From a virus (taxonomy: Duplodnaviria > Caudoviricetes): 45,210 bases of DNA. Position numbers and translations under genes: made by a program. A model generated the notes under the pieces. It was given only the letters and a program-made list of their open reading frames with translations, ran no database searches and was not told where the DNA came from. Of this stretch, positions 2 through 38,626 are shown piece after piece (positions within the stretch are counted from its first letter, which is position 1; each line of letters starts with the position of its first letter). The stretch spans positions 1 to 45,210 of IMG/VR virus record IMGVR_UViG_3300017655_000006. One strand, 5' to 3'.

Positions 2-1288
2 GGTACTGTAATTGACATCGATATCTATTCAAACGTTCCAATCGATGAAGTTCCCACAGATAAAGTTAATGAACAAACCTTGAAGTATATGAAGATGATC
101 ACCAAATACTGGCATGAACTTAGAAAAGCTCTTAGCCGTATTGTTGATAATCCTGAAAATGAGTATTCCGATCAAGTCGGTATTACTTATGCACGAGCTA
201 AAGATATCTTGAGTATCGGTAAACATACGAAGTGGGATGATGATGGTTCCATCTTCGATAATATGATTATCTATATGACTGTAGTGAATACCAAGAAAGC
301 TGTTATTGGTACTAAGCTTGTAGGACGCCATGGTAATAAAGGCGTTATCTCTGAAATAGTTGAAGAAAAGTATATGCCGAGAAGTGAAGATGGTGAATAT
401 GCTGAGATCATCTTTAGTGCTCTTAGCGTTATTGGACGATTAAATCCTTCTCAGTTGTACGAACTCGAACTTAACTGGATTGTTGATGAAATCTTGGCAG
501 GAGATGTATCCAAGAAGAAGAAATTCGAAACTCTTCTTGACTTCTTGTCTATCTGTAATCCTGATCAAGAGAAAGTTGTTAGAAGAATGTACGATTCTCT
601 CAGCAATAAAGATCAGGAAGAATTCCTGTCTCAAATTACGAAGGAATTCGTTACATTCCAGCCACCTAGTATGTCTATCAGCTTTGACAATTACGCTAAG
701 CTAATTGAAAAGGTTGAACCTAAGAAGAAGAAGTTCACGGTCATGGATGAGAAGGGCAATGTCTTCAATATCCAACGTAAGATGATCATGTCTGATTCTT
801 ATATCTACCGACTTAAGCATGAACCTATTACGAAATTCTCTGTACGGTCTAAAGGTACTATCAATCCACGTACATTTCTTCCGATTAAATCTCATGCTTA
901 TAGCAGAGGAACAGCTCTGTTCAATAACCAAGCGATTCGGATTGGGAATATGGAAATGGATATCTTGAATCTATGTAACGATCCTGCAGCTATTAACTAC
1001 TTCACAAGATTGTATTGCACATCAGTAATTGGACGAAGAGAATTCGCTCAGTTACTTGATATCAATATCTTCTCTGAAGATGTTGAAATCGAAATGGAGA
1101 ATCCGAAGTCCCGTGTTGTTGATCTGTTCAATTCCACATTTATGGTATGTGGAATGGGTCTTCGGTTCGAGTATCCTAAGCAGAGAAAAGTTGAAAACAT
1201 CCTGCTTGAAGAAATTAAAGCGATGGATAGTAAGCATATCAAAGTATTCTTCTCTGGGTGGGATAAGCTTAAAGGAAGTGTATCTTAA
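2..1288 (+). CDS. rpoB: Phage multisubunit RNA polymerase beta subunit, C-terminal part (5' end lies outside the window)
   Basis: Motifs GTKLVGRHGNKGVIS, AEIIFSALSVIGRLN, YRLKH and RIGNMEM match beta regions H and I. The frame is open from base 2 (GTVIDIDIYSNVP...), so the TTG at 80 is not the true start. Confidence 0.93.
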   Translation, partial: GTVIDIDIYSNVPIDEVPTDKVNEQTLKYMKMITKYWHELRKALSRIVDNPENEYSDQVGITYARAKDILSIGKHTKWDDDGSIFDNMIIYMTVVNTKKAVIGTKLVGRHGNKGVISEIVEEKYMPRSEDGEYAEIIFSALSVIGRLNPSQLYELELNWIVDEILAGDVSKKKKFETLLDFLSICNPDQEKVVRRMYDSLSNKDQEEFLSQITKEFVTFQPPSMSISFDNYAKLIEKVEPKKKKFTVMDEKGNVFNIQRKMIMSDSYIYRLKHEPITKFSVRSKGTINPRTFLPIKSHAYSRGTALFNNQAIRIGNMEMDILNLCNDPAAINYFTRLYCTSVIGRREFAQLLDINIFSEDVEIEMENPKSRVVDLFNSTFMVCGMGLRFEYPKQRKVENILLEEIKAMDSKHIKVFFSGWDKLKGSVS

Positions 1289-5824: not shown

Positions 5825-7702
5825 ATGAATTATCTAAGCCAGATGGTTGCCACAATGTCAGATACTATGACTGAAGGCATCAACGAAGATCTATTTGATC
5901 GTCGTCAAGGTAAACAGATCTGGGAATTCATTGCGGAGGATTTAAGATCCATCGAGATGCTTCCAGATATCTTCCTTCGTAATGTGGAATATGTCAGAGA
6001 TCCTTCTAAGCTTGACATTAGGCTGAACATCAAAAATATCAAGAATAAGAAGATCTTAAAAAATAAGATCGAAAAACTTATTCCGGTGCAGCCTGATGTA
6101 TTTGATGCAATTAAATTTACTGTGGATATCGCAGGAGGTCAGAAAGTAGAAAATACGATCTTGCTTCCGAAGTATATAGATAGATATAACTTCATGATTT
6201 CGGGAAATAAAACTTTAGCTATGTTCCAGGTTGTAGATAATGCAACCTATAACCGTAAAGGCGAAGTAATCTTGAAGTCTAGAGTTCAAAAACGTCTTAG
6301 CAGAGAAGAGAAGAAAAAGAAGTATTCCCTACTCTGTGTGGAAACTGGTCAAGAATATAAGATTTCGAATCTGAATATAAATCTGTTTAAGAAAACATTC
6401 AATCCGTTATTCTATTTCGCTGCTAGAAGAACCATTCTCGGAACTATTGACTTCTTCGGTTATACAAAACTTCTTAACGTTGTTACAGAGGTTAAGAAAC
6501 CGGAACTGTTCTATTATTTTCGAGTAAATTCCAATATTCTTCTAGAAGCTGAGAAGACTCTGTTTGATGATGACTCGTTCTTCAGAACCTTTATAGGTCT
6601 TCTTGCACAACTGTTTAACACTCGTAACAAAATTGAAGACATTTATGAAGAAGAAGTTTGGGTTAAGAAACTCGGATCTCTCTTCACCTCTGCAGCAAAG
6701 AATCAATTGAATAAAGGTTATGACGTTATGAAATCATTCAGAAACGTTCTTGATGCTACAACTCAAAACGCTCTGAGAATTGATTATCGTGATAAAGCGG
6801 ATGTCTACTGTGTACTACGGTGGATGATGCGTGAATTTAACGAATTGAGAAATATGGATAATAATTCTCTTGCAAATAAACGTATTCGTGTAAATGAATA
6901 CATCGCTGCATATTTCTCAAGATATTGGAAAGATAGAGTTAACTATGCACTGAACCTCAAGCCATATGATAAAGAGAAATTGGCTAGAATTTTCAAAGTG
7001 GATGAACACATTCTTATCAAGGCTCTATTCAGAGGGAAGAAGCCTTCGCCACTATTTAGATACAATATCGATATCAATGATCTACAAGCATTAAATGGAT
7101 TGAAATTCTCCTATACAGGTATTCAAGGTTTACCTTCTGATAAGGTCAAGGATGAGCAACGGGATATTTATCCAAGCCATCTTGGACGATTTGAACTTAA
7201 TGCAATCTCTTCAAGTTCTCCGGGTATTTCGGGTATGCTTACTCCATTCTGTAAGATTTATGAAGGAGGATACTTCGGGGACTCTCAAGCTATCGAGAAA
7301 CCATATGTGAAGAAGCTTCGTAAACGGATCAAGGAAATCAAGATCAATGAGGAAGTTTACGGAGTAATCAAAGCTCACTATAAGACTCTGGAAGAGGAGC
7401 ACGATAAACGTAGATTTGCTGTGAAGTACAGAGATCTACGGAATGAACGTGGTTTCATCCAGATTGTAAGACCTAAATATATCCGTAATGAAAATGGGTT
7501 GATTAAGGTAGATCGTGTAGTCAATCCTGCAAGTTATAAGCGTAATGCTAAAGGATATATCAATGTATATCGTAACTTCCAGTTGATTCGGATAACAACT
7601 AGAATCAAACCAGAATATCAATCGGGTAATTATGTTCGTAATGAACGAGGATGTATTCAAATTACACGGAATGAGGCTGGTCCATTTGGCACAATACGAT
7701 AA
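5825..7702 (+). CDS. rpoB: Phage RNA polymerase beta subunit, N-terminal part, with a repetitive C-terminal tail
   Basis: NSLANKRIR matches D.L.NRR.R; EQRDIYPSHLGRFELNAISSSSPGISGML matches region D (RDVHPSHYGR.CP..TPEG..IGL); LLPKY..FMISG near the N-terminus. Confidence 0.88.
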   Translation: MNYLSQMVATMSDTMTEGINEDLFDRRQGKQIWEFIAEDLRSIEMLPDIFLRNVEYVRDPSKLDIRLNIKNIKNKKILKNKIEKLIPVQPDVFDAIKFTVDIAGGQKVENTILLPKYIDRYNFMISGNKTLAMFQVVDNATYNRKGEVILKSRVQKRLSREEKKKKYSLLCVETGQEYKISNLNINLFKKTFNPLFYFAARRTILGTIDFFGYTKLLNVVTEVKKPELFYYFRVNSNILLEAEKTLFDDDSFFRTFIGLLAQLFNTRNKIEDIYEEEVWVKKLGSLFTSAAKNQLNKGYDVMKSFRNVLDATTQNALRIDYRDKADVYCVLRWMMREFNELRNMDNNSLANKRIRVNEYIAAYFSRYWKDRVNYALNLKPYDKEKLARIFKVDEHILIKALFRGKKPSPLFRYNIDINDLQALNGLKFSYTGIQGLPSDKVKDEQRDIYPSHLGRFELNAISSSSPGISGMLTPFCKIYEGGYFGDSQAIEKPYVKKLRKRIKEIKINEEVYGVIKAHYKTLEEEHDKRRFAVKYRDLRNERGFIQIVRPKYIRNENGLIKVDRVVNPASYKRNAKGYINVYRNFQLIRITTRIKPEYQSGNYVRNERGCIQITRNEAGPFGTIR

Positions 7703-13776: not shown

Positions 13777-14970
13777 GTGAACAAATTCGTATTCCCATTC
13801 TTGGCAGGAATGTTTGATCAGTTGAAATCCACTAATCTCAATAACTCCAAGGAAATCATTGAGCGTATCAAGAATACGTTGAACAATGAAACTTCGCTCC
13901 CTTGCATAAACGTGGTTATCAATAAATCAACTACTGCTCAAAACTTCTATGGTATGATTGTATTTCCTAAAACTATCCTGTCTGATCAAAAAGGTATTGA
14001 GATCAAGAGTTATGTGGTAGAGATTCAGGAACAATTGCTGCAACTATTGTCCGGTAAACAATTGGCCGCATTGCTTATCCATGATCTTTCTCATAACGTA
14101 TTGACGTATACGGCAGTTGAGAGATTGAAATCCTCCATCTACCATGCTTGCAAAATGACCAATATGAAAGTGATCGATGTGCTGTATAATATCGACAGCA
14201 AAACTCGTGACCTTGCTCTGTTGGATATTGCTAACCGTACCTATAAGGAACCAGTAGTTCCTGATCTGGAAATGTACGAAGCTGATAGAATCCTCATTGA
14301 TATGAATATCTACAATGAGTACAACTCTGCTATTAAAGTTATCCATGATCAGGTTGAGGAATTTAACCTGTCTAATCCTGATGATCAACACATCGCTGAT
14401 ACTTATATTGCCACTATCCTTATTAAGATTGTAATGGAAAAAGCTAAAGGTATGGTTCGTACCTTCAATTTCCATAAGAAATTCGTTGAGGATACTTATG
14501 ATACCAAAATCTTCAAGATGTTCCCTTCGATTGATATTGAATTGAAAGAGGAAAATTTTGGACAGAAAGTATCTGAAGTTGAAACATTAAAGCCGTTTGA
14601 ACTTGGTATGCTGCAAGAATCTACCATGGCTTTTATTAAAGAAAAGCAAAATTTGAATGAATCCTCTCTGATTATCGAGAGTATCTTCAAGCAGAAGCGC
14701 CCGAATATCACATCTCTCCAGAAGGAATTTGATATCATCAGCTTCAAGATGCAGAACTTTGCTTCGAACTATGAGAGATTGAATCTTTTAGATCGAGTAT
14801 ATGATAGCATTTATCTTATTGAGAAATATCATGATGAGAATCCTACTGATGAAGTGATCGCAGATTATCTGCAAAAGTTCCTTGAACTTCCTAAACTTAT
14901 GAGGGATACGAAACCTTCTAAGAAAAGATATGATGTGTTCGTGGAATACCCTGCAGGATATGAAGGATAA
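13777..14970 (+). CDS. Probable virion protein with a degenerate zincin-like motif (HDLSH)
   Basis: AAGGAGG RBS and GTG start; LSGKQLAALLIHDLSH resembles L...ElaAvl.HE.gH. Confidence 0.6.
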   Translation: MNKFVFPFLAGMFDQLKSTNLNNSKEIIERIKNTLNNETSLPCINVVINKSTTAQNFYGMIVFPKTILSDQKGIEIKSYVVEIQEQLLQLLSGKQLAALLIHDLSHNVLTYTAVERLKSSIYHACKMTNMKVIDVLYNIDSKTRDLALLDIANRTYKEPVVPDLEMYEADRILIDMNIYNEYNSAIKVIHDQVEEFNLSNPDDQHIADTYIATILIKIVMEKAKGMVRTFNFHKKFVEDTYDTKIFKMFPSIDIELKEENFGQKVSEVETLKPFELGMLQESTMAFIKEKQNLNESSLIIESIFKQKRPNITSLQKEFDIISFKMQNFASNYERLNLLDRVYDSIYLIEKYHDENPTDEVIADYLQKFLELPKLMRDTKPSKKRYDVFVEYPAGYEG

Positions 14971-14976
14971 AAAACT

Positions 14977-15006
14977 GAGATACAGCTATTATGCTGTATC
15001 TCTTTT
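14977..15006 (+). terminator. Intrinsic terminator
   Basis: GAGATACAGC/GCTGTATCTC stem and TTTT. Confidence 0.75.
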
Positions 15007-15047
15007 GCCTTTGTGTAGCTTTCCTAGATTTTACCACTTAATTAAAA

Positions 15048-15059
15048 AACATTAAAGTA
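15048..15059 (+). promoter_or_regulatory. Putative late promoter AACA-N6-TA
   Basis: AACATTAAAGTA. Confidence 0.6.
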
Positions 15060-15100
15060 ATGAGTTATCTCATTAAAATAATTAATTAGAGGGTGGAGCC

Positions 15101-16186
15101 ATGAGCAACGGTAAGCGGTCGAAAATTAATGATATAACTCTTGTTAGTATGGTTGAAGAATTTCCTGGGAAATCTTTTCAATTCTATTCTAACAAGATTC
15201 AAGAGAAGCTTGACATCTCTATATCGGCCGATACCGTTAGGAAACGTTTGAAGAAATTGGGAATCGACAAAGGGGAGTCACCTAAGACCACTACAACCCA
15301 AGAAACTCCTACTGGTGGAACAGCACCAATTTACTCCAATCGTAAGAATTCGGAGAATCCAACGGTAGAATTCATCGACGCCTTAACAGAATTTCAGGAA
15401 AAAATGATCGGTGCAGATGAGAGACAAACACAGTTAAACATCGACATTCCTGATAAAAAACCTATCGGCGTAATATTTACTGGAGACTGGCACTTTGGTG
15501 GATTGCGTACTGATCACAAGGGAATGATTGAAGATTTCAAACTCTTCAATGATACTGAAGGTTTGTACAGTGTCCTCATGGGTGATTATGGAGATAACGT
15601 TATCTCTGGCATTCACCCAGGTGCTCAATATGAACAAATTCTTAACCCTGATAAGCAACGTGAAGGAGTATTACATCTTTGTGATATGTACTTCAAAGAT
15701 CGTACTCTTGCGGTAATCAAGGGCAACCATGATAACTGGCAAGTAAGATCTACTGGAGATGACTTTGTTAAGGAACTAGCTCGTGTATGTAATGCTGGTT
15801 ATCTATGGTATGGTGGCGAAGTTATGCTCGGTCTTGGTGAACATACGTACAAGATTCATGCTCGTCATAACTATAAGTACAATTCTAGTATCAATACTAC
15901 TAACAGTCAACGAAATCTATATGCTACTACTCATGCTGACGTTATTGCATTTGGTCATATTCATACTAACGAAGTTCATGAAAAATCTGCAGGCGGTAAT
16001 GACACTATCTGGCTCAGAACCGGTAGTTATAAAATCACCGATGATTTCTCTCAATGGATCGGTGGATATATGGCTGACCCTCGTGTTCCTATGGTCGTAT
16101 TCTGGCCTGGAACGAGGAAGAAGATTGGTTTCCGTGACATTCGTGACGGAGTCTTATTCCTCAATGCTGCTCGGAAAATATATTAA
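15101..16186 (+). CDS. Calcineurin-like metallophosphoesterase with an N-terminal HTH-like segment
   Basis: GDWH, GDYGD, GNHD, H, GHIH motifs in canonical order; ISADTVRKRLKKLGI near the N-terminus. Confidence 0.88.
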   Translation: MSNGKRSKINDITLVSMVEEFPGKSFQFYSNKIQEKLDISISADTVRKRLKKLGIDKGESPKTTTTQETPTGGTAPIYSNRKNSENPTVEFIDALTEFQEKMIGADERQTQLNIDIPDKKPIGVIFTGDWHFGGLRTDHKGMIEDFKLFNDTEGLYSVLMGDYGDNVISGIHPGAQYEQILNPDKQREGVLHLCDMYFKDRTLAVIKGNHDNWQVRSTGDDFVKELARVCNAGYLWYGGEVMLGLGEHTYKIHARHNYKYNSSINTTNSQRNLYATTHADVIAFGHIHTNEVHEKSAGGNDTIWLRTGSYKITDDFSQWIGGYMADPRVPMVVFWPGTRKKIGFRDIRDGVLFLNAARKIY

Positions 16187-16199
16187 TTTCTCTATGTTC

Positions 16200-16243
16200 C
16201 AAAAAAAAAATAAGCCCAAGAGGATTTTACCCCTCTTGGGTTT
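16200..16243 (-). terminator. Terminator at a convergent junction; inverted near-copy of 8235-8281
   Basis: Minus strand reads CCCAAGAGG-GGTAAAAT-CCTCTTGGG-CTTA-T10. Confidence 0.8.
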
Positions 16244-16258
16244 GTTCTATTCATTTGA

Positions 16259-16450
16259 TCACTTCTTATCATCGGCCCATATAGCTATGGTCCATATTAT
16301 ATTCATTATAGGGATGAACATAACAACTGTGAGCACTTCATCCCATTTTGATCCCATTCTCTTCAGCATGTTATTCGCACATACATAAAATATCCATACT
16401 GAAGCGAAATATAAGAGAATGGGTATGATATAGAAGAGATATTCTAACAT
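16259..16450 (-). CDS. Small membrane protein (two hydrophobic segments)
   Basis: GGAGG RBS before MLEYLF; the track start at 16507 overlaps the upstream gene. Confidence 0.7.
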   Translation of the reverse strand: MLEYLFYIIPILLYFASVWIFYVCANNMLKRMGSKWDEVLTVVMFIPIMNIIWTIAIWADDKK

Positions 16451-16472
16451 TACATTCCTCCATGATACCAGT

Positions 16473-17045
16473 TTATTTATCAGATATTTCCATTCCCATT
16501 TGTCCAAGATAGGAATCTAAAATATTCCGTTCCCTTGTTCCCTTTTCAGGTAATGTAAATTTTTCAACGCCTTCAATGATATAAACTCTGGGCCTCCACC
16601 ATGTATATACAATTTTGTTTACTCGTTTAAGATCAAGAGCTTTCTTCGCGCGACGCATAATACGACGCTCCTGTCTAGTATTTGTTTTCTTACGTTCAAT
16701 CGATATAACACCGGCAAGCACATTTCTGAAGAAATTTATATCAATATGCTTAACTAGATAATATCCAGGATCTGCTGTACATAACATATTTAAAATCTCT
16801 AATTCATAACCGATTCGATTATATATAGCCATTGGTGAAAATAACAATTCAGCTTTAGATTCTTTAGCACCAATAGATGGCATCTCATGTTCAGGGACTA
16901 TTGATGAAACAACACCTCTGTTACCATAACGTCCAACTATTTTAGTTCCTGGAAACATTTCTTCAGCTTTAGATACACTTATTATGTGCCCATCTTCAAC
17001 GATACTTGAATCAAATACATAAATCGGTTTTTTATTTTCAGTCAT
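16473..17045 (-). CDS. Miniature RNA polymerase beta-like protein (barrel motifs only) with a basic C-terminal extension
   Basis: EDGHIIS, GTKIVGRYGNRGVVSSIV...MP, AELLFSPMAIYNR and IGYELEILNMLCTADP align with beta motifs; AAGGAG RBS favours the start at MTENKK. Confidence 0.8.
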   Translation of the reverse strand: MTENKKPIYVFDSSIVEDGHIISVSKAEEMFPGTKIVGRYGNRGVVSSIVPEHEMPSIGAKESKAELLFSPMAIYNRIGYELEILNMLCTADPGYYLVKHIDINFFRNVLAGVISIERKKTNTRQERRIMRRAKKALDLKRVNKIVYTWWRPRVYIIEGVEKFTLPEKGTRERNILDSYLGQMGMEISDK

Positions 17046-17062
17046 ATTAAACATCTCCTTTT

Positions 17063-17752
17063 TTATAGTTGTGGTTCTTCTTTGAAGAAATCATGTAAGA
17101 ATATCCTCTCACTGTTTACTATTACATATTTACCTTCATTCATTTCAGTTTGAGATGTTGCTGAATCTTCGGTACATGATCTAAATCCTACCCATCTGGT
17201 ATTGTCATTATTACGAGCATTAATTTGGTCAGCAATTTGTTTAACTTTATCAAAGATTTCTTTCAATTCAGTTTTATTAATTTCCTCTAGAGGAATTTGA
17301 ACAAAATTCATTCCTTCTCTATCAATATATTCAAACTCTCCTTCAACGTAAACATACATATCTTCTTCGTAATATATATCAATGTCCCAAATTCTTTTTA
17401 TTCCTATTATAGAATTAACACTATTTGTTTTAAACCATTCATGGAGAACATTTTGAACCTGTGTGACGAATTTCGCTTGGAATGTATCAGTATTCTCCAC
17501 AATATCTGGAAACAATTTTACATACACGGAATAGTGCACATGTTTAAGAAAATCTTCCTGATCCACAATTTCCATAATTTCTTTGTATCCAGAAACTCTT
17601 ATGATCTTATCGACACTCGGATAAGATTCTAAATATTGATCCAATTTCATACCGATATCATGAATGAGAAATGCACCATCATTCAAATCAATAACAGTTG
17701 TTAATCTGTTTCCTGTGGATCTTACATAAATTGGTTTTACTTCATTTGTCAT
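17063..17752 (-). CDS. Hypothetical protein
   Basis: GGAGG RBS before MTNEVKPIYV. Confidence 0.8.
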   Translation of the reverse strand: MTNEVKPIYVRSTGNRLTTVIDLNDGAFLIHDIGMKLDQYLESYPSVDKIIRVSGYKEIMEIVDQEDFLKHVHYSVYVKLFPDIVENTDTFQAKFVTQVQNVLHEWFKTNSVNSIIGIKRIWDIDIYYEEDMYVYVEGEFEYIDREGMNFVQIPLEEINKTELKEIFDKVKQIADQINARNNDNTRWVGFRSCTEDSATSQTEMNEGKYVIVNSERIFLHDFFKEEPQL

Positions 17753-17760
17753 AGTTAAAA

Positions 17761-18002
17761 CCTCCAATAGTTTAGTATATTAACTTACATTATTCTTCAA
17801 GCAGGTATTTCATCAAAAGGGCTTCGTTATTTTGGGGATGTTCTTTCAAAGCTTCTCTTATGCAGCTTTTATGAACATTGGTGTCGAATTCATCGTCGTA
17901 TACCAATTCTTCATTTTCATCATCAGTGTAACAAAACCAGCATCCGCCATTACTAGGATTCAACTTTGCCATTTTAAATTCCTCCAATAGTTTAGTATAT
18001 TA
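17761..18002 (-). repeat. 22-bp direct repeat (17761-17782 and 17981-18002) containing the RBS
   Basis: CCTCCAATAGTTTAGTATATTA is identical at both positions. Confidence 0.9.
17790..17972 (-). CDS. Small putative zinc-binding protein
   Basis: CWFC...HKSC; GGAGG RBS before MAKLNP. Confidence 0.7.
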   Translation of the reverse strand: MAKLNPSNGGCWFCYTDDENEELVYDDEFDTNVHKSCIREALKEHPQNNEALLMKYLLEE

Positions 18003-18008
18003 CAAGTA

Positions 18009-18022
18009 AATAATATATATTT
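18009..18022 (-). promoter_or_regulatory. Putative early promoter
   Basis: AAATATATATTATT on the minus strand. Confidence 0.75.
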
Positions 18023-18026
18023 GCAG

Positions 18027-18060
18027 AAAAAAGAAGATGCGGATGTCGCATCTTCTTTTT
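18027..18060 (-). terminator. Terminator after the HNH gene
   Basis: AAAAGAAGATGCG/CGCATCTTCTTTT inverted repeat. Confidence 0.75.
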
Positions 18061-18898
18061 ATAGAGGAATTATTTTACCATTCTCTCGTTTAAAGTATAA
18101 ATCTGAGATTTTCTTATGATTCCTCTTAGCTTTAATACCGTTTATAACATGCTTTCCTACATCGAATAGTTTTGCAATGTCTACTATTTTCATTTTATTT
18201 TTTATACATTTACAAATTTCATGCACATCTTCTTCTTTTGTATTTAGAAATTTCTCACCTCTTTTTGCTATTTTAATATCGGAGAATATATCTTTGTGGT
18301 CCACACCTTCATGAATTCTTTTAAGACATTGGGCCTTAGATTTATCTCTATCATAACCTAAATTTTCTAATATTGAATTTATAGTCCATCCTTCTACTTG
18401 TAATAATTCTTTTATCTTAAAAAGTTCTTCGATTGTGAAAACTTCTTTTCCTAATGAATTATATTTGTGCTTTTGATTTTGAGAGTTGTTTGACCATTCC
18501 AAATTATCGACATGATTAAAATCTTTAAATTCGTCGCCATATCTTTTATGATTTATTTGTGGATAATTATTGATATTTGGAATAAACACAAATGCTACCA
18601 ATCTATGAACTTTTCTTGGAAGTTTATCATATCCGGGTTCACACACATAAATTTGGGCATAACCATCCTTATCTTTCCAAGGTTTAACAAATTTATCAGA
18701 TTCGACATTCTTTATTCTTCCATAATTACTTATAATATATCTTTTACTTTGAATCATCTTTTCTTCAAAATCGAATATCAATTTTTCCCATATTTCATTA
18801 TATAAATTATCTTTAGTATAATATGAATCTTCTATAGATTTAGCATATTTTCTCTTCAGATGGTTTAATGCGTTATGATCTCGATTTATTTTGATCAT
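18059..18898 (-). CDS. Free-standing NUMOD4-HNH homing endonuclease
   Basis: YIISNYGRIKN (NUMOD4), VHRLVAFVFIPN..INHK..N.VDNLEW...QN..H, two HTH-like C-terminal repeats. Confidence 0.9.
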   Translation of the reverse strand: MIKINRDHNALNHLKRKYAKSIEDSYYTKDNLYNEIWEKLIFDFEEKMIQSKRYIISNYGRIKNVESDKFVKPWKDKDGYAQIYVCEPGYDKLPRKVHRLVAFVFIPNINNYPQINHKRYGDEFKDFNHVDNLEWSNNSQNQKHKYNSLGKEVFTIEELFKIKELLQVEGWTINSILENLGYDRDKSKAQCLKRIHEGVDHKDIFSDIKIAKRGEKFLNTKEEDVHEICKCIKNKMKIVDIAKLFDVGKHVINGIKAKRNHKKISDLYFKRENGKIIPL

Positions 18899-18926
18899 AA
18901 AAACTCTCCTTTCTTATACCTACATA

Positions 18927-18940
18927 AATAATATATATTT
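18927..18940 (-). promoter_or_regulatory. Putative early promoter
   Basis: AAATATATATTATT on the minus strand, upstream of the HNH gene. Confidence 0.75.
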
Positions 18941-19017
18941 TACGCTATAATTTATGTCTTTGAACTATTAATAAAAAATATATGCGGTAAAATCTGTATT
19001 AAAGGATGTGAGATTTC

Positions 19018-21186
19018 ATGGCATTGAAACGCCCCTATAAGAAATATGAGGAAGAATATACAATTCACTGGAACACATCAAATACATCATTTCTTAAAGT
19101 AGCTACTTTATTGAGAAATGCTGGTATTGAAAACTATCATTTTATGCTTCGATTATATGACGAAGATTTGATGGATATCGATCCGTATGATCCAGATTTA
19201 ACTCCAGAAATGATGGGTAAGGTATTGACTGAAACTACTCGAAACTTCTTTTACTTTATACGTGAAGTTGCCCGTATTCCCGAAGAAGGCGCGTCCACTG
19301 AAGTCGGTGGTGGTACGCCCTTCCAGCTTCATCGTGGAAATTTGGCCCAACTCTGGGCCTTCGAACACAATATAAGCCATTTTTTAGAGCTGCCGAGGCA
19401 GTTCGGAAAAACGACGACAGCGGTGCAGAGATATTTATGGCAATTCTCTTATGGTACTACATCCTCCACTACAATCTTTATGAACATGGATAAAGCTGCA
19501 TCAGTTGCGAACTTAACTCGTCTTAAGGATAGCCGTTCATTACTTCCTGAGTATATGCAGATGGTATTTACCCTTGATGATAAAACTGGTCAGCTCAAGA
19601 AAGATACTGATAACGTTGAGCAGATCAAGAATAAGAAACTTAAAAATAGCATCATCACTAAAGCTGGTGCTCGTAACGTACAGTCCGCAGAACGAGTTGG
19701 TCGGGGTCTTTCCGTTCCTTCCCTGTGGTTTGACGAGTTTAACTTTATTCTTCTTAATGAAACGATTCACGCTGCAGCTATCCCTGCATTTTCTAAGGCT
19801 TCTGAGAATGCTCAGAAAAATGATAAACCATATGCTATTTGTATCACTAGTACTCCAGGTGATTTGGGCACTCAACATGGTGCATATGGATATGATCTTA
19901 AAGAACGTGCAGGAAGATTCACAGAATCCCTGTATGATTTAGATCCTGAAGAAGTGGAAACATGGTTGTATAAGAATGCTAGTAACGGAATGATATATAT
20001 CTCGTTCTCATTCATGCAACTTGGTAAAACTATGGAATGGTTCGAAGAACAATGTCGTCGGATGAACCATAACTGGATGAAGATCCGTCGGGAACTTCTC
20101 CTGCAATGGAACAAAGCATCCAATAACTCCCCATTCCTTCCTGAAGACATTGATGAACTTGATACAATGGCAATTCCTTCTTTCAAAGTTCTCAAAATTA
20201 ATACTCACTATGAAGTATTGCTCTACAAAGAACTTGATCAGCATAAACGTTATCTTGTAGGCGTTGACGTTTCAAAGGGTGTAGGTCGGGATTCTACAGC
20301 AGTGGCAATCGTTGATTCCCAAACCCTTGAAGTAGTTGGTCTATTCATAAATAACGTTATACGATCTAAAGAACTCAAACGATTCTTGCATACATTGATA
20401 CTTGAACATCTACCAAATTCGGTACTGATCATAGAAAGTAATAATATTGGTGATGCAATTATTGAAGATCTTAAATCTTCTGCTCTTAAACATCACTTAT
20501 ACTATGACTTCGCTATTAGGCTTGCTGAAGAAAAACGTAAAGATGGTGTAATTCAGAAGAAAAATAAAAATAGAATGGTCTATGGTCATGAAGTAACATC
20601 TGCTACTCGTCCTAAGATGATGGAGCTATTACTGCAATTCGTATCCAAGCATAAGAAGAAAATTGCTGTCAGAGAACTTGTAGACCAAATTCGTCACTTA
20701 GAATACAAGAATGAAGAAAGAATCGATCATGCTGCAGGACATCACGATGACGCCGTATTTGCTTATCTTGCATGTATATACATCATGTTCTATGGTCGAA
20801 ATCTTGCAAGATTCGGTTTGTTCAACGCCTTTAACTTCGATGGACATGAAATCGAATCGAGGGAGAAACCTGAAGACAAAGTTGCTAAAGTATTTAAGAA
20901 AGCAAAACTCCAAAGACTCATCAAATCGAATCCATATCTTGCAGGACTTTTCGAAGACCTCGTATTTGTTGAAGATGTGGATAGAGCAATTGATAGAGAA
21001 ATGTATGAACTTGAAGATAGTGAGGATGGGCGAAGCACATTATTCCAAACTGATGGTTTAGCCGGTTCCAAAATCAAGAGGAATGCATTTAGGGAATTGA
21101 ATGCAAGAGCATCTGGAAGGTTAGATGGTTCCAAAGACTCTGTATTTGGTGTATCTGATAGACATTCTGGAGGCACTTGGTGGTAA
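19018..21186 (+). CDS. terL: Terminase large subunit
   Basis: Walker A PRQFGKTT, Walker B WFDE, ITSTP motif III, nuclease motifs GVDVSKG, IESN and HDDAVFA. Confidence 0.93.
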   Translation: MALKRPYKKYEEEYTIHWNTSNTSFLKVATLLRNAGIENYHFMLRLYDEDLMDIDPYDPDLTPEMMGKVLTETTRNFFYFIREVARIPEEGASTEVGGGTPFQLHRGNLAQLWAFEHNISHFLELPRQFGKTTTAVQRYLWQFSYGTTSSTTIFMNMDKAASVANLTRLKDSRSLLPEYMQMVFTLDDKTGQLKKDTDNVEQIKNKKLKNSIITKAGARNVQSAERVGRGLSVPSLWFDEFNFILLNETIHAAAIPAFSKASENAQKNDKPYAICITSTPGDLGTQHGAYGYDLKERAGRFTESLYDLDPEEVETWLYKNASNGMIYISFSFMQLGKTMEWFEEQCRRMNHNWMKIRRELLLQWNKASNNSPFLPEDIDELDTMAIPSFKVLKINTHYEVLLYKELDQHKRYLVGVDVSKGVGRDSTAVAIVDSQTLEVVGLFINNVIRSKELKRFLHTLILEHLPNSVLIIESNNIGDAIIEDLKSSALKHHLYYDFAIRLAEEKRKDGVIQKKNKNRMVYGHEVTSATRPKMMELLLQFVSKHKKKIAVRELVDQIRHLEYKNEERIDHAAGHHDDAVFAYLACIYIMFYGRNLARFGLFNAFNFDGHEIESREKPEDKVAKVFKKAKLQRLIKSNPYLAGLFEDLVFVEDVDRAIDREMYELEDSEDGRSTLFQTDGLAGSKIKRNAFRELNARASGRLDGSKDSVFGVSDRHSGGTWW

Positions 21187-36989: not shown

Positions 36990-37034
36990 ATGAACAAAAA
37001 TAAATTTTTTGCGATCGAGGTCGATGAATTGTGA
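36990..37034 (+). CDS. 14-codon leader ORF (MNKNKFFAIEVDEL) coupled to the helicase
   Basis: AAGGAGG RBS; its TGA overlaps the helicase GTG start (GTGA). Confidence 0.5.
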   Translation: MNKNKFFAIEVDEL

Positions 37035-38626
37035 GTGATACAATACTTGCAAACTTTTCACACTATGTAATTCCCAACTTCAAAGAAGAAGGATCTGAAG
37101 GTGATCTAACACCAATAGAGAAATATCTCAGTACATTCAATAAGAGGATCTATAGATATGTCCCTATTGGATATTATTATGATGAAGATAAAAATGAGCT
37201 GAGGATACCAAGAGGATATTCGTATAAGGATATTCTTCAACGGTTCAAATTTCAGCGTAAAATGATTACAAACATGAAACCTCAAGATCATGATAAAATT
37301 GATATGAAGCTATTTCAGCAACCTAGAGAAGCATTACAAGTAGAGATGATGTCTTTCCTATGTGGTTTAGGAAAGCATTCATATACTCAAAAATTCTCTC
37401 AGGTATTTTGTGACCTTCATACTGGTAAAGGCAAAACTTACTGTACAGTTTCTGCTTTAACTTATTTCAAAACTAAAGCTATTATCTTTATCCCCTCTAA
37501 GTTAAGTAAGCTGATTCCTCAATGGTTTGAAGCTTTAACTACTTATACTAATAAGAGGGCTAGAGATATTCTAATTGTTAGAGGTTCCGAAATGTGTGAA
37601 GATATCTTTAACGGTGAATATGCTGATAAAGAAATTTTCATCATTACTAAAGGAACCGCTTTATCTTATGCCAATACTTATGGTTGGCCTAAGTTTCAAT
37701 CTATGATAGAAAAGACTAAAGCTGGTGTTAAAATTATTGATGAGGCGCATATGGATTTAAGAACCAATGTGTTAATCGACTGCTATACAAATATCAAGAA
37801 AAATATCTATTTGACTGCATCTGCATATAGAGGTGATAGATTCGAAGATGCAATCTTCCAAAGAATCTTCAGTGGTGTTCCTATATTCGGACGCGATTTA
37901 GTAAGTCCTGAAGAAAATTATATCAATATGATTATGTATGAATTTAAACACACACCTACTACAAAGCAAAGAGCTTCCTGCAAAGTCAAAACCAATGATG
38001 GTTTTGGTCTATCTGCTGTAAAATACTCTAATTACCTTATGTCTAAAGAAGGTGCACGATTCCAATTCTTCACGGCTCTCAATAAGGCTGTAAAAGATAT
38101 ATTCGTGTACTACAGAAATAGATCTGGCTTTATCGAACATGATAAACTGGACACTGGTAAATATGTAAGAAATAAGAATGGAAATATCCAAATCCATAGA
38201 ACTCAAAAGTTTCAAGGACGATTATTGATTCTCGGAGCTACTATAGAATTTCTGAAGACTATTCAAAAATTCTTGGAGACTAACTTCCCTGAATATAGCG
38301 TAGGTTTATATACCAGCGAAATAGCAAATCTGAAAGAAAGAGAAGTTGAATTGACTAAAGATATTATCCTTGCAACTGAAAAAGGTATTGGTACTGGCGC
38401 CAATATCGATGATTTACAATTCATGTTCAATTTGATTCCGTATAGTAATAAAGTGTATGCTAACCAATTACCGGGTAGATTACGTCAACTCAAAGGAAGA
38501 AGAGTTTACTATGCAGAGATTATCAATACAGAATTTAATGAAGCTGCTGGTCAGTATCAAAGACGTATTCCCTATCTCAAGGAAAAAGCAAAAGGTGGCA
38601 AACTTATAACCGTAATTGTCGCCTAA
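37031..38626 (+). CDS. Superfamily 2 helicase (UvsW/ResIII-like)
   Basis: HTGKGKT, IIDEAH, LTAS, GTGANI and QLPGRLR motifs. Confidence 0.9.
   Translation: MSDTILANFSHYVIPNFKEEGSEGDLTPIEKYLSTFNKRIYRYVPIGYYYDEDKNELRIPRGYSYKDILQRFKFQRKMITNMKPQDHDKIDMKLFQQPREALQVEMMSFLCGLGKHSYTQKFSQVFCDLHTGKGKTYCTVSALTYFKTKAIIFIPSKLSKLIPQWFEALTTYTNKRARDILIVRGSEMCEDIFNGEYADKEIFIITKGTALSYANTYGWPKFQSMIEKTKAGVKIIDEAHMDLRTNVLIDCYTNIKKNIYLTASAYRGDRFEDAIFQRIFSGVPIFGRDLVSPEENYINMIMYEFKHTPTTKQRASCKVKTNDGFGLSAVKYSNYLMSKEGARFQFFTALNKAVKDIFVYYRNRSGFIEHDKLDTGKYVRNKNGNIQIHRTQKFQGRLLILGATIEFLKTIQKFLETNFPEYSVGLYTSEIANLKEREVELTKDIILATEKGIGTGANIDDLQFMFNLIPYSNKVYANQLPGRLRQLKGRRVYYAEIINTEFNEAAGQYQRRIPYLKEKAKGGKLITVIVA

Follow-up and report, generated by a model that had tools for sequence, protein, structure and literature searches.

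Introduction

The non-virion RNA polymerase (nvRNAP) of phage AR9 includes the beta C-terminal (betaC) subunit gp089 (PDB 7S00 chain C), which with its orthologues is about 665-700 aa long. In beta subunits there are two conserved active-site lysines and the SBHM flap is an insert in the beta DPBB, as set out in the part of the source drawn on here (PMC7824862); the same part describes flap-less two-barrel polymerases (YonO, NCgl1702-like proteins and RDRPs), which have beta-type barrel motifs but do not carry the SBHM insert.

The DNA analyzed here, called the window from here on, is a fragment of about 45 kb (45,210 nucleotides) from an AR9-like jumbo phage, and it contains an open reading frame (ORF) of 190 aa, P0001. 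Like gp089 and its orthologues, the ORF carries the ED, GxK..GRYGN and P..R motifs and the last C-terminal block, all in the same order. Unlike gp089, it has no flap or SBHM domains, its second Lys is an Arg, and about 90 of its residues make up a predicted domain that has no match in beta. The flap-less polymerases are similar in having the barrel motifs without the insert; these enzymes, in contrast, have both barrels and DxDxD (PMC7824862, in the part used here), while the ORF contains no D[FY]DGD and no predicted barrel.

Genomic context

The nearest deposited phages to the terminase of the window are the Bacillus phages Goe21 (38%) and BpSp (36%). The phage's own betaC gene is followed by a ligase gene, the same order as in AR9; the N-terminal part of beta that is missing from the window was taken from seven IMG/VR relatives (81-88% identical to the phage's beta). 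The ORF belongs to a minus-strand cassette placed between a phosphoesterase-like gene and terL, and the features described below are collected in Table 1.

Table 1. Features of the ORF and its surroundings, in coordinates of the window; residues are those of the 190-aa ORF, beta positions are approximate.
Feature	Position	Strand	Support
Own nvRNAP betaC gene, motif donor family	2..1288	+	5' end lost at contig edge; AR9 gp089 orthologue; E 8.7e-47 to 7s00_C
Terminator-like hairpin at cassette end	16215..16240	both	sequence scan
Whole ORF, 190 aa, P0001	16473..17045	-	intact; dN/dS 0.28 vs L023
Block 4, residues 169-190, copy of last conserved betaC block (beta ~636-660)	16476..16541	-	clear in just two members, P0001 and P0003
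Predicted folded alpha/beta domain, residues 71-161	16563..16835	-	pLDDT 82-95 over 81-160 (family alignment) and 89-98 (beta fragments added); best VIA Z 3.5-3.6
Family signature helix, residues 120-133, K-x-N-[TS]-R-x-x-RR-[IL]-[LM]-RRA, basic	16647..16688	-	11/11 members
Residues 77-93, third block of the first-pass annotation, predicted first helix of the folded domain	16767..16817	-	alignment tests and both AF2 models
Block 2b, residues 64-78, AE..FSP....NR (beta ~403-417)	16812..16856	-	8/11 members at p<=0.02; residues 50-78 dN/dS about 1
Block 2a, residues 31-58, GxK..GRYGN(R)GV..I.P..MP (beta ~370-396)	16872..16955	-	10/11 members; residues 12-49: 8 synonymous/1 non-synonymous
Block 1, residues 5-30, copy of nvRNAP betaC ED region (beta ~168-194)	16956..17033	-	hhalign E 1.5e-7; 7/11 members at p<=0.02
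Ribosome-binding site AAGGAG	17055..17060	-	9 nt before ATG at 17045
Repeated upstream motif, copy 1, candidate promoter	17766..17781	-	sequence scan
Repeated upstream motif, copy 2, candidate promoter	17986..18001	-	sequence scan

The 16-nt upstream motif AATATACTAAACTATT has two copies in the cassette, against a chance expectation of 0.17 for a pattern derived from these very sites, and with one mismatch it also precedes the homologue in locus L013, as a candidate early promoter; a scan for sigma-70 promoters gave a result no better than chance. A further hairpin, at window 18027-18060, is common to other contigs in all four runs and has loose ends on both sides. A short repeat, YVRN.[RN]G.I, was seen in the window (5825-7702 and 37031-38626) at the betaN C-terminus and in the helicase-like gene, and also in a 125-aa ORF of genome G001.

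The slot from a core gene to terL (window 14970-19018) is variable, measuring 4 kb here and between 10 nt and 1.7 kb in relatives. The gene is present in this slot before terL in the window and in loci L023 and L013, and absent from L014-L021 (8 loci, about 6 distinct phages); genomic neighbours are known for three of the 11 members of the family described below. In L013 the protein is 36% identical, while terL and the capsid are 85% and 83% identical, a turnover as expected of conflict genes. In L023 the immediate upstream neighbour is an HNH gene; in the window such a gene is found two genes away.

Other differences among these loci were recorded. The ORF and the gene next to it stand in reverse order in L013 relative to the window; the DNA of the core gene tail is identical between L023 (3048-3515) and the window (14501-14970) while the adjoining phosphoesterase has a dS of 0.26, a sign of recent recombination; and directly behind terL, L018 (4574-5674) encodes a 366-aa paralogue of the terminase's N-terminal portion (37%).

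Integrity and selection

The ORF is a genuine and uninterrupted gene that evolves under purifying selection. The first-pass annotation had described an intact frame with a good ribosome-binding site, and indeed the 190 codons are uninterrupted and AAGGAG precedes the ATG (Table 1). One Logan contig, possibly from the source sample, covers 16269-17061 with no differences; runs X3 and X4, with small shares, cover parts of the 3' half, with a variant. Among RNA runs none was listed as containing the sequence, a result that has no bearing on expression. The block junctions are identical in L023, which comes from a different assembly; together with the spanning contig, this contradicts an assembly artefact at the motif junctions, which the first-pass annotation had named as something that would overturn its interpretation.

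Selection was assessed against L023, the closest homologue, and the test is thus built on one close pair. Codons 12-190 contain 41 synonymous and 49 non-synonymous changes (dN/dS 0.28), non-synonymous changes being 49/90 where 78% would be expected (P 1e-6). Constraint is uneven along the protein: residues 12-49 have a dN/dS of 0.03 (P 6e-5), residues 50-78 evolve neutrally (1.05) though the homologues are close, residues 116-160 are again constrained (8 of 21 changes non-synonymous, dN/dS 0.15, P 1e-4) and residues 161-190 have a value of 0.20. When the comparison was made with L013, the beta blocks proved eroded (dN/dS >1 for residues 12-49), so they are dispensable in some lineages, and residues 116-160 were still constrained (0.26). 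Homologues and dN/dS had been proposed earlier as a check; the 11 members and the purifying selection found support the view that this is not simple decay.

Motifs shared with RNA polymerase beta

Blocks 1, 2 and 4 can be traced, by sequence comparison, to motifs of RNAP beta. Residues 24-79 are beta-like according to Pfam Rpb2_6 (E 1.7e-4) and to AR9 nvRNAP chain 7s00_C (E 1.9e-11), with a match also in PHROGs; the similarity to PF00562 (RNA_pol_Rpb2_6) and PHROG 3295 involves residues 22-80, but the Pfam score of 21.2 bits, over 54 of 373 model positions, is below the gathering cut-off of 23.4, which is passed by two of the ten other family members. With hhalign and an alignment of 27 betaC sequences, E was 1.5e-7 for residues 4-31 and 1e-19 for residues 29-80, and no match was obtained for residues 77-162. 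The ED motif, DPAIVED[GA]FR[IT]S in the full betaC of close relatives, is matched here by D[SP]SIVEDGHIIS, and betaC is the top match of the ED block among 749 proteins.

The beta flap (~194-367) is missing between blocks 1 and 2; the earlier observation that the ED strand and GxK are joined without it holds. The ED pair, the first Lys (K35) and the Arg (R77) are kept, also as described before; we take the ED pair and the Arg to have catalytic roles. Of two substitutions called in the same annotation, Lys to Arg at the second lysine is correct, while Tyr in place of His is no degeneration, GRYGNKG being native in AR9 gp089 and many betaC.

Sliding 22-column HMMs of beta were applied to the 11 proteins of the family, with 1,202 background pieces for comparison; among the ~1,200 tests made, stray matches at p 0.01-0.02 are expected by chance. 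In block 1 the best three of the 27 betaC are of the phage's own lineage, and for the P..R and C-terminal blocks the highest scores come from betaC outside it (lineages were assigned by similarity, without a tree). Such block-specific preferences fit several donors or retained ancestral states. At the DNA level, identity of the ORF to the phage's own beta gene is only 72% over 53 nt.

A third block had been assigned to beta by the first-pass annotation, and here the assignment was not confirmed. Similarity between RIGYELEILNMLCTADP and RIGNMEMDILNLCNDP has a p of 0.04-0.06 by shuffling, and against natural segments a p of 0.16 with standard gap costs and 0.002 with cheap ones. No match to the beta-window HMMs 577-600 was found in any of the 11 members, and for residues 80-109 the fit to AR9 beta 244-274 is equally good or better (p 0.003). 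The candidate sources of residues 77-112, namely beta 582-597, AR9 244-274 and beta 521-548, are inseparable; the RIGNME block would be colinear with the remaining blocks, and its likeness to beta is borderline, appearing weak and lineage-specific.

The basic C-terminus, formerly taken as unrelated, is not wholly so: its residues 175-190 resemble the final betaC block, with 11.0 bits in P0001 and 12.1 bits in P0003, two proteins of one lineage, the best of the 1,202 background pieces reaching 5.5. Block 4 scores 48 against outside-lineage betaC and at most 16 against the own lineage. No donor for residues 112-165 was found in four related genomes or contigs. The KxxxN[ST] stretch may be readable as PolB motif B.

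An 11-member family

The family was assembled from P0001, P0003 (77% identical), the syntenic L013 protein (36%), four proteins obtained with a three-sequence profile and four from a search with representatives, giving a total of 11. The representative search returned 45 matches, nine of them family; 13 new ones were inspected, of which four were members and nine were beta-like without the family signature. Scans of IMG/VR revealed no member beyond L013 (in one scan, among the best 80 of 362 matches), nor was a full member found in the complete genomes G003, G004, G005, G010, G011 and G012.

Residues K120, R124, R128, R131, R132 and A133 of the signature helix are invariant in all members, and judging from the alignment the core of the family is precisely the basic part once considered unrelated. 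The beta residues K35, R39, G41 and N42 are kept in 10-11 of the 11 (K35, R39 and N42 in 10), a count that is biased since the family was found through these motifs. The position of the second Lys is K in four members, and P0006 has lost the first Lys. In 7-8 of the 11 divergent members the ED block comes ahead of the GxK block, with a linker ranging from a few to ~30 residues; the helix that follows the ED motif is missing from P0007, and no ED block is seen in P0009 and P0010.

Other cargo appears in the latter two: P0010 carries the beta' motif NADFDGD, and P0009 a stretch like the PolB motif A of relatives (E 0.003 against the relatives' PolB window), located on the catalytic motif; with 562 windows, single snippet matches at E 0.003-0.005 come close to what chance would give, and two matches outside the motifs had comparable scores. 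P0008 and P0011 share an extra N-terminal domain of ~150 aa with no Pfam match.

The modules were also detected apart from each other. A 160-aa ORF of G005 (L160:808-1290) has the RRILRRA helix followed by likely strands and no beta motifs. Two ORFs of G001 carry polymerase motifs: one of 156 aa (L045:1477-1947) has N-terminal beta GRYGNKG and P..R blocks (Rpb2_6, 34.8 bits) followed by an unrelated acidic C-terminus, and one of 275 aa (L050:7935-8762) opens with FNPL...YNADYDGDE, a beta' active-site snippet, the rest having no Pfam family. In G011, a 57-aa ORF right behind the betaC gene (L161:392-571) contains a worn GxK block ending in IPSR.

The gene is an accessory one, kept under selection and occurring patchily among AR9-like jumbo phages, with variable cargo and a variable genomic slot. 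The family is real and undescribed, recruitment of gene fragments being in itself of a known kind; a literature search that reached few subscription papers, and main texts without supplements, yielded no published description of such proteins.

Predicted structure

AF2 models were built with two alignments, and in both the N-terminal part is poorly ordered, bearing in mind that shallow alignments can hide a fold. With the 11 family sequences, pLDDT is 38-45 at residues 1-70 and high in the C-terminal domain (Table 1), whose elements follow the order helix-strand-helix-strand-helix-strand-strand. With 50 beta fragments and six family members, the N-terminal part reaches 38-73 and forms a small sheet, and helix 171-182 becomes ordered. 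Both models make residues 77-93 the first helix of the C-terminal domain, and GYY.V, the candidate for the sixth strand of a barrel, sits in this domain as well.

Using whole-protein models, Foldseek at E 0.001 returned nothing from the PDB (two models) or from viral structures (one model), and in wide VIA searches no RNAP or DPBB was present among the rows listed (best Z 3.5 and, among 50 rows for the model with beta fragments, 3.6). In the ESM Atlas the whole protein led to Rpb2_6-like clusters only, and residues 88-165 to scores <0.9. These searches matched the C-terminal domain to no known fold, with the proviso that a match may be missed when whole-protein models are used. A strand like the sixth of beta (Y..LKH) was seen at p<=0.02 in one of 11 members (P0016, p 0.005), and hhalign of residues 88-112 against the betaC alignment gave no match. 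Complex prediction for the protein (11-row alignment) with the nvRNAP beta'N of a relative scored 0.03 against a mark of 0.32, which counts neither way.

Discussion

As the leading functional idea, we consider a bait or decoy. We tentatively propose an inactive accessory protein of fast turnover that displays polymerase motifs as bait for a factor otherwise engaging the phage polymerase. It is likely to be catalytically dead, a mimic rather than a miniature enzyme: lacking DxDGD, and with its patchy retention of lysines, the protein should be unable to make RNA alone. Short copies of beta active-site motifs flank an arginine-rich domain that is predicted to fold, and the pieces would have been acquired through non-homologous recombination, with at least two polymerases as donors. 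The motif region would become ordered only on a partner, which may be a host defence or competitor factor, and the basic helix might bind nucleic acid or an acidic surface.

A bait fits best with three features taken together: strong constraint, at the protein level, on a segment predicted not to fold by itself; catalytic cargo that can be exchanged; and rapid turnover in a slot that is itself variable. It is favoured by the constraint on residues 12-49 and 116-160 with K35, R39, G41 and N42 retained, and by the occurrence of the modules apart, the basic one in G005, the beta motifs in G001 and G011, and the DxDGD snippet in G001. The erosion in L013, the neutrality of residues 50-78 and the near-chance snippet matches weaken it. 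Such a protein would resemble phage anti-defence decoys against Avs in exploiting the recognition of conserved core phage proteins. Nevertheless, in the sections of that study used here, Avs sensors recognise core folds independently of catalytic residues and no RNA polymerase is among their targets (PMC13581612), whereas the ORF shows short motifs; this argues against short motifs as Avs bait. By extension, and with more doubt, AR9-like jumbo phages might possess a modular 'motif-display' class, in which the most conserved catalytic snippets from the RNA and DNA polymerases of the phages themselves (beta ED, GxK..GRxGN and C-terminal helix, beta' NADFDGD, PolB motif A) are carried on small folds as interchangeable baits against undescribed host sensors of polymerase active sites.

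The copies could also be recombination debris from break-prone conserved sites, targets of introns or homing endonucleases, which would have been fixed as the leader or the stabilising ends of a basic domain that is independent and holds the actual function. We regard this as nearly as likely as a bait. Introns or breaks in related betaC fall near AR9 positions 173, 370, 406, 533 and 575 (approximate, from tblastn ends), inside these very motifs; moreover the HNH gene is nearby, the basic module exists on its own, the blocks prefer different betaC lineages, and the motifs erode in L013. A dN/dS of 0.03 over residues 12-49 and the recurrent order of the ED and GxK blocks among divergent members speak against debris, and the junction from beta ~194 to ~368 is off the mapped intron sites. 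Exon shuffling via introns was considered separately as the origin of that junction, and was rejected on the mismatch with these approximate sites.

The first-pass annotation preferred a minimal closed double-psi barrel. In its surviving form, blocks 1 and 2 with the GYY strand would make the barrel, perhaps as a dimer or on a partner, and would poison or divert RNAP assembly, block 4 providing a second contact to beta'; we find this unlikely. Half-barrel homodimers are known, as is the barrel topology without a flap insert, and in the ORF the flap is removed where an insert-free barrel requires it, five strand-sized elements are present, P0016 has its sixth-like strand, and blocks 1, 2 and 4 are colinear with betaC. 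Against it, the low pLDDT of the N-terminal part, which forms a small sheet only when the 50 beta fragments are supplied, and the searches free of DPBB or RNAP matches point to a protein predicted to have no self-contained closed barrel; furthermore, both models allot the GYY strand to the C-terminal domain, the linker is variable, and barrel elements are missing in P0007, P0009 and P0010.

Constraint acting on the DNA is improbable. The motif copies would in that case be decoys or operators for the homing endonucleases cutting the polymerase genes, and such sites tolerate third-position changes; an HNH gene is near and the blocks are centred on intron sites, but the low DNA identity to the own beta gene, and pieces that lie in frame within an intact ORF in all 11 members, speak for the protein. 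Even less credible is that the ORF encodes one half, the beta side, of a minimal polymerase, an idea of the first-pass annotation that we hold very unlikely; the ED pair, K35 and R77 would suit it, but the second Lys is kept in so few members, P0006 has no first Lys, and there is neither DxDGD in the ORF nor a short ORF with DxDGD in the 45-kb window, the genome being incomplete. Finally, pseudogene decay or mis-assembly, to which the singleton clusters might have pointed, was rejected and has practically no likelihood given the selection figures, the gene-spanning contig and the junctions shared with L023.

For annotators, a short 'RNA polymerase beta' match in a jumbo phage need not be a broken gene. 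Should a barrel form after all, nature would provide in it a polymerase barrel free of inserts, bearing on the origin of the fold; if the copies are debris, they would be a clear natural case of new genes made from non-adjacent active-site motifs and kept under selection. If, as we tentatively favour, the protein is a bait, then its family draws attention to host factors by which the catalytic centres of polymerases are recognised, and the family members would offer 190-aa probes to pull them down.
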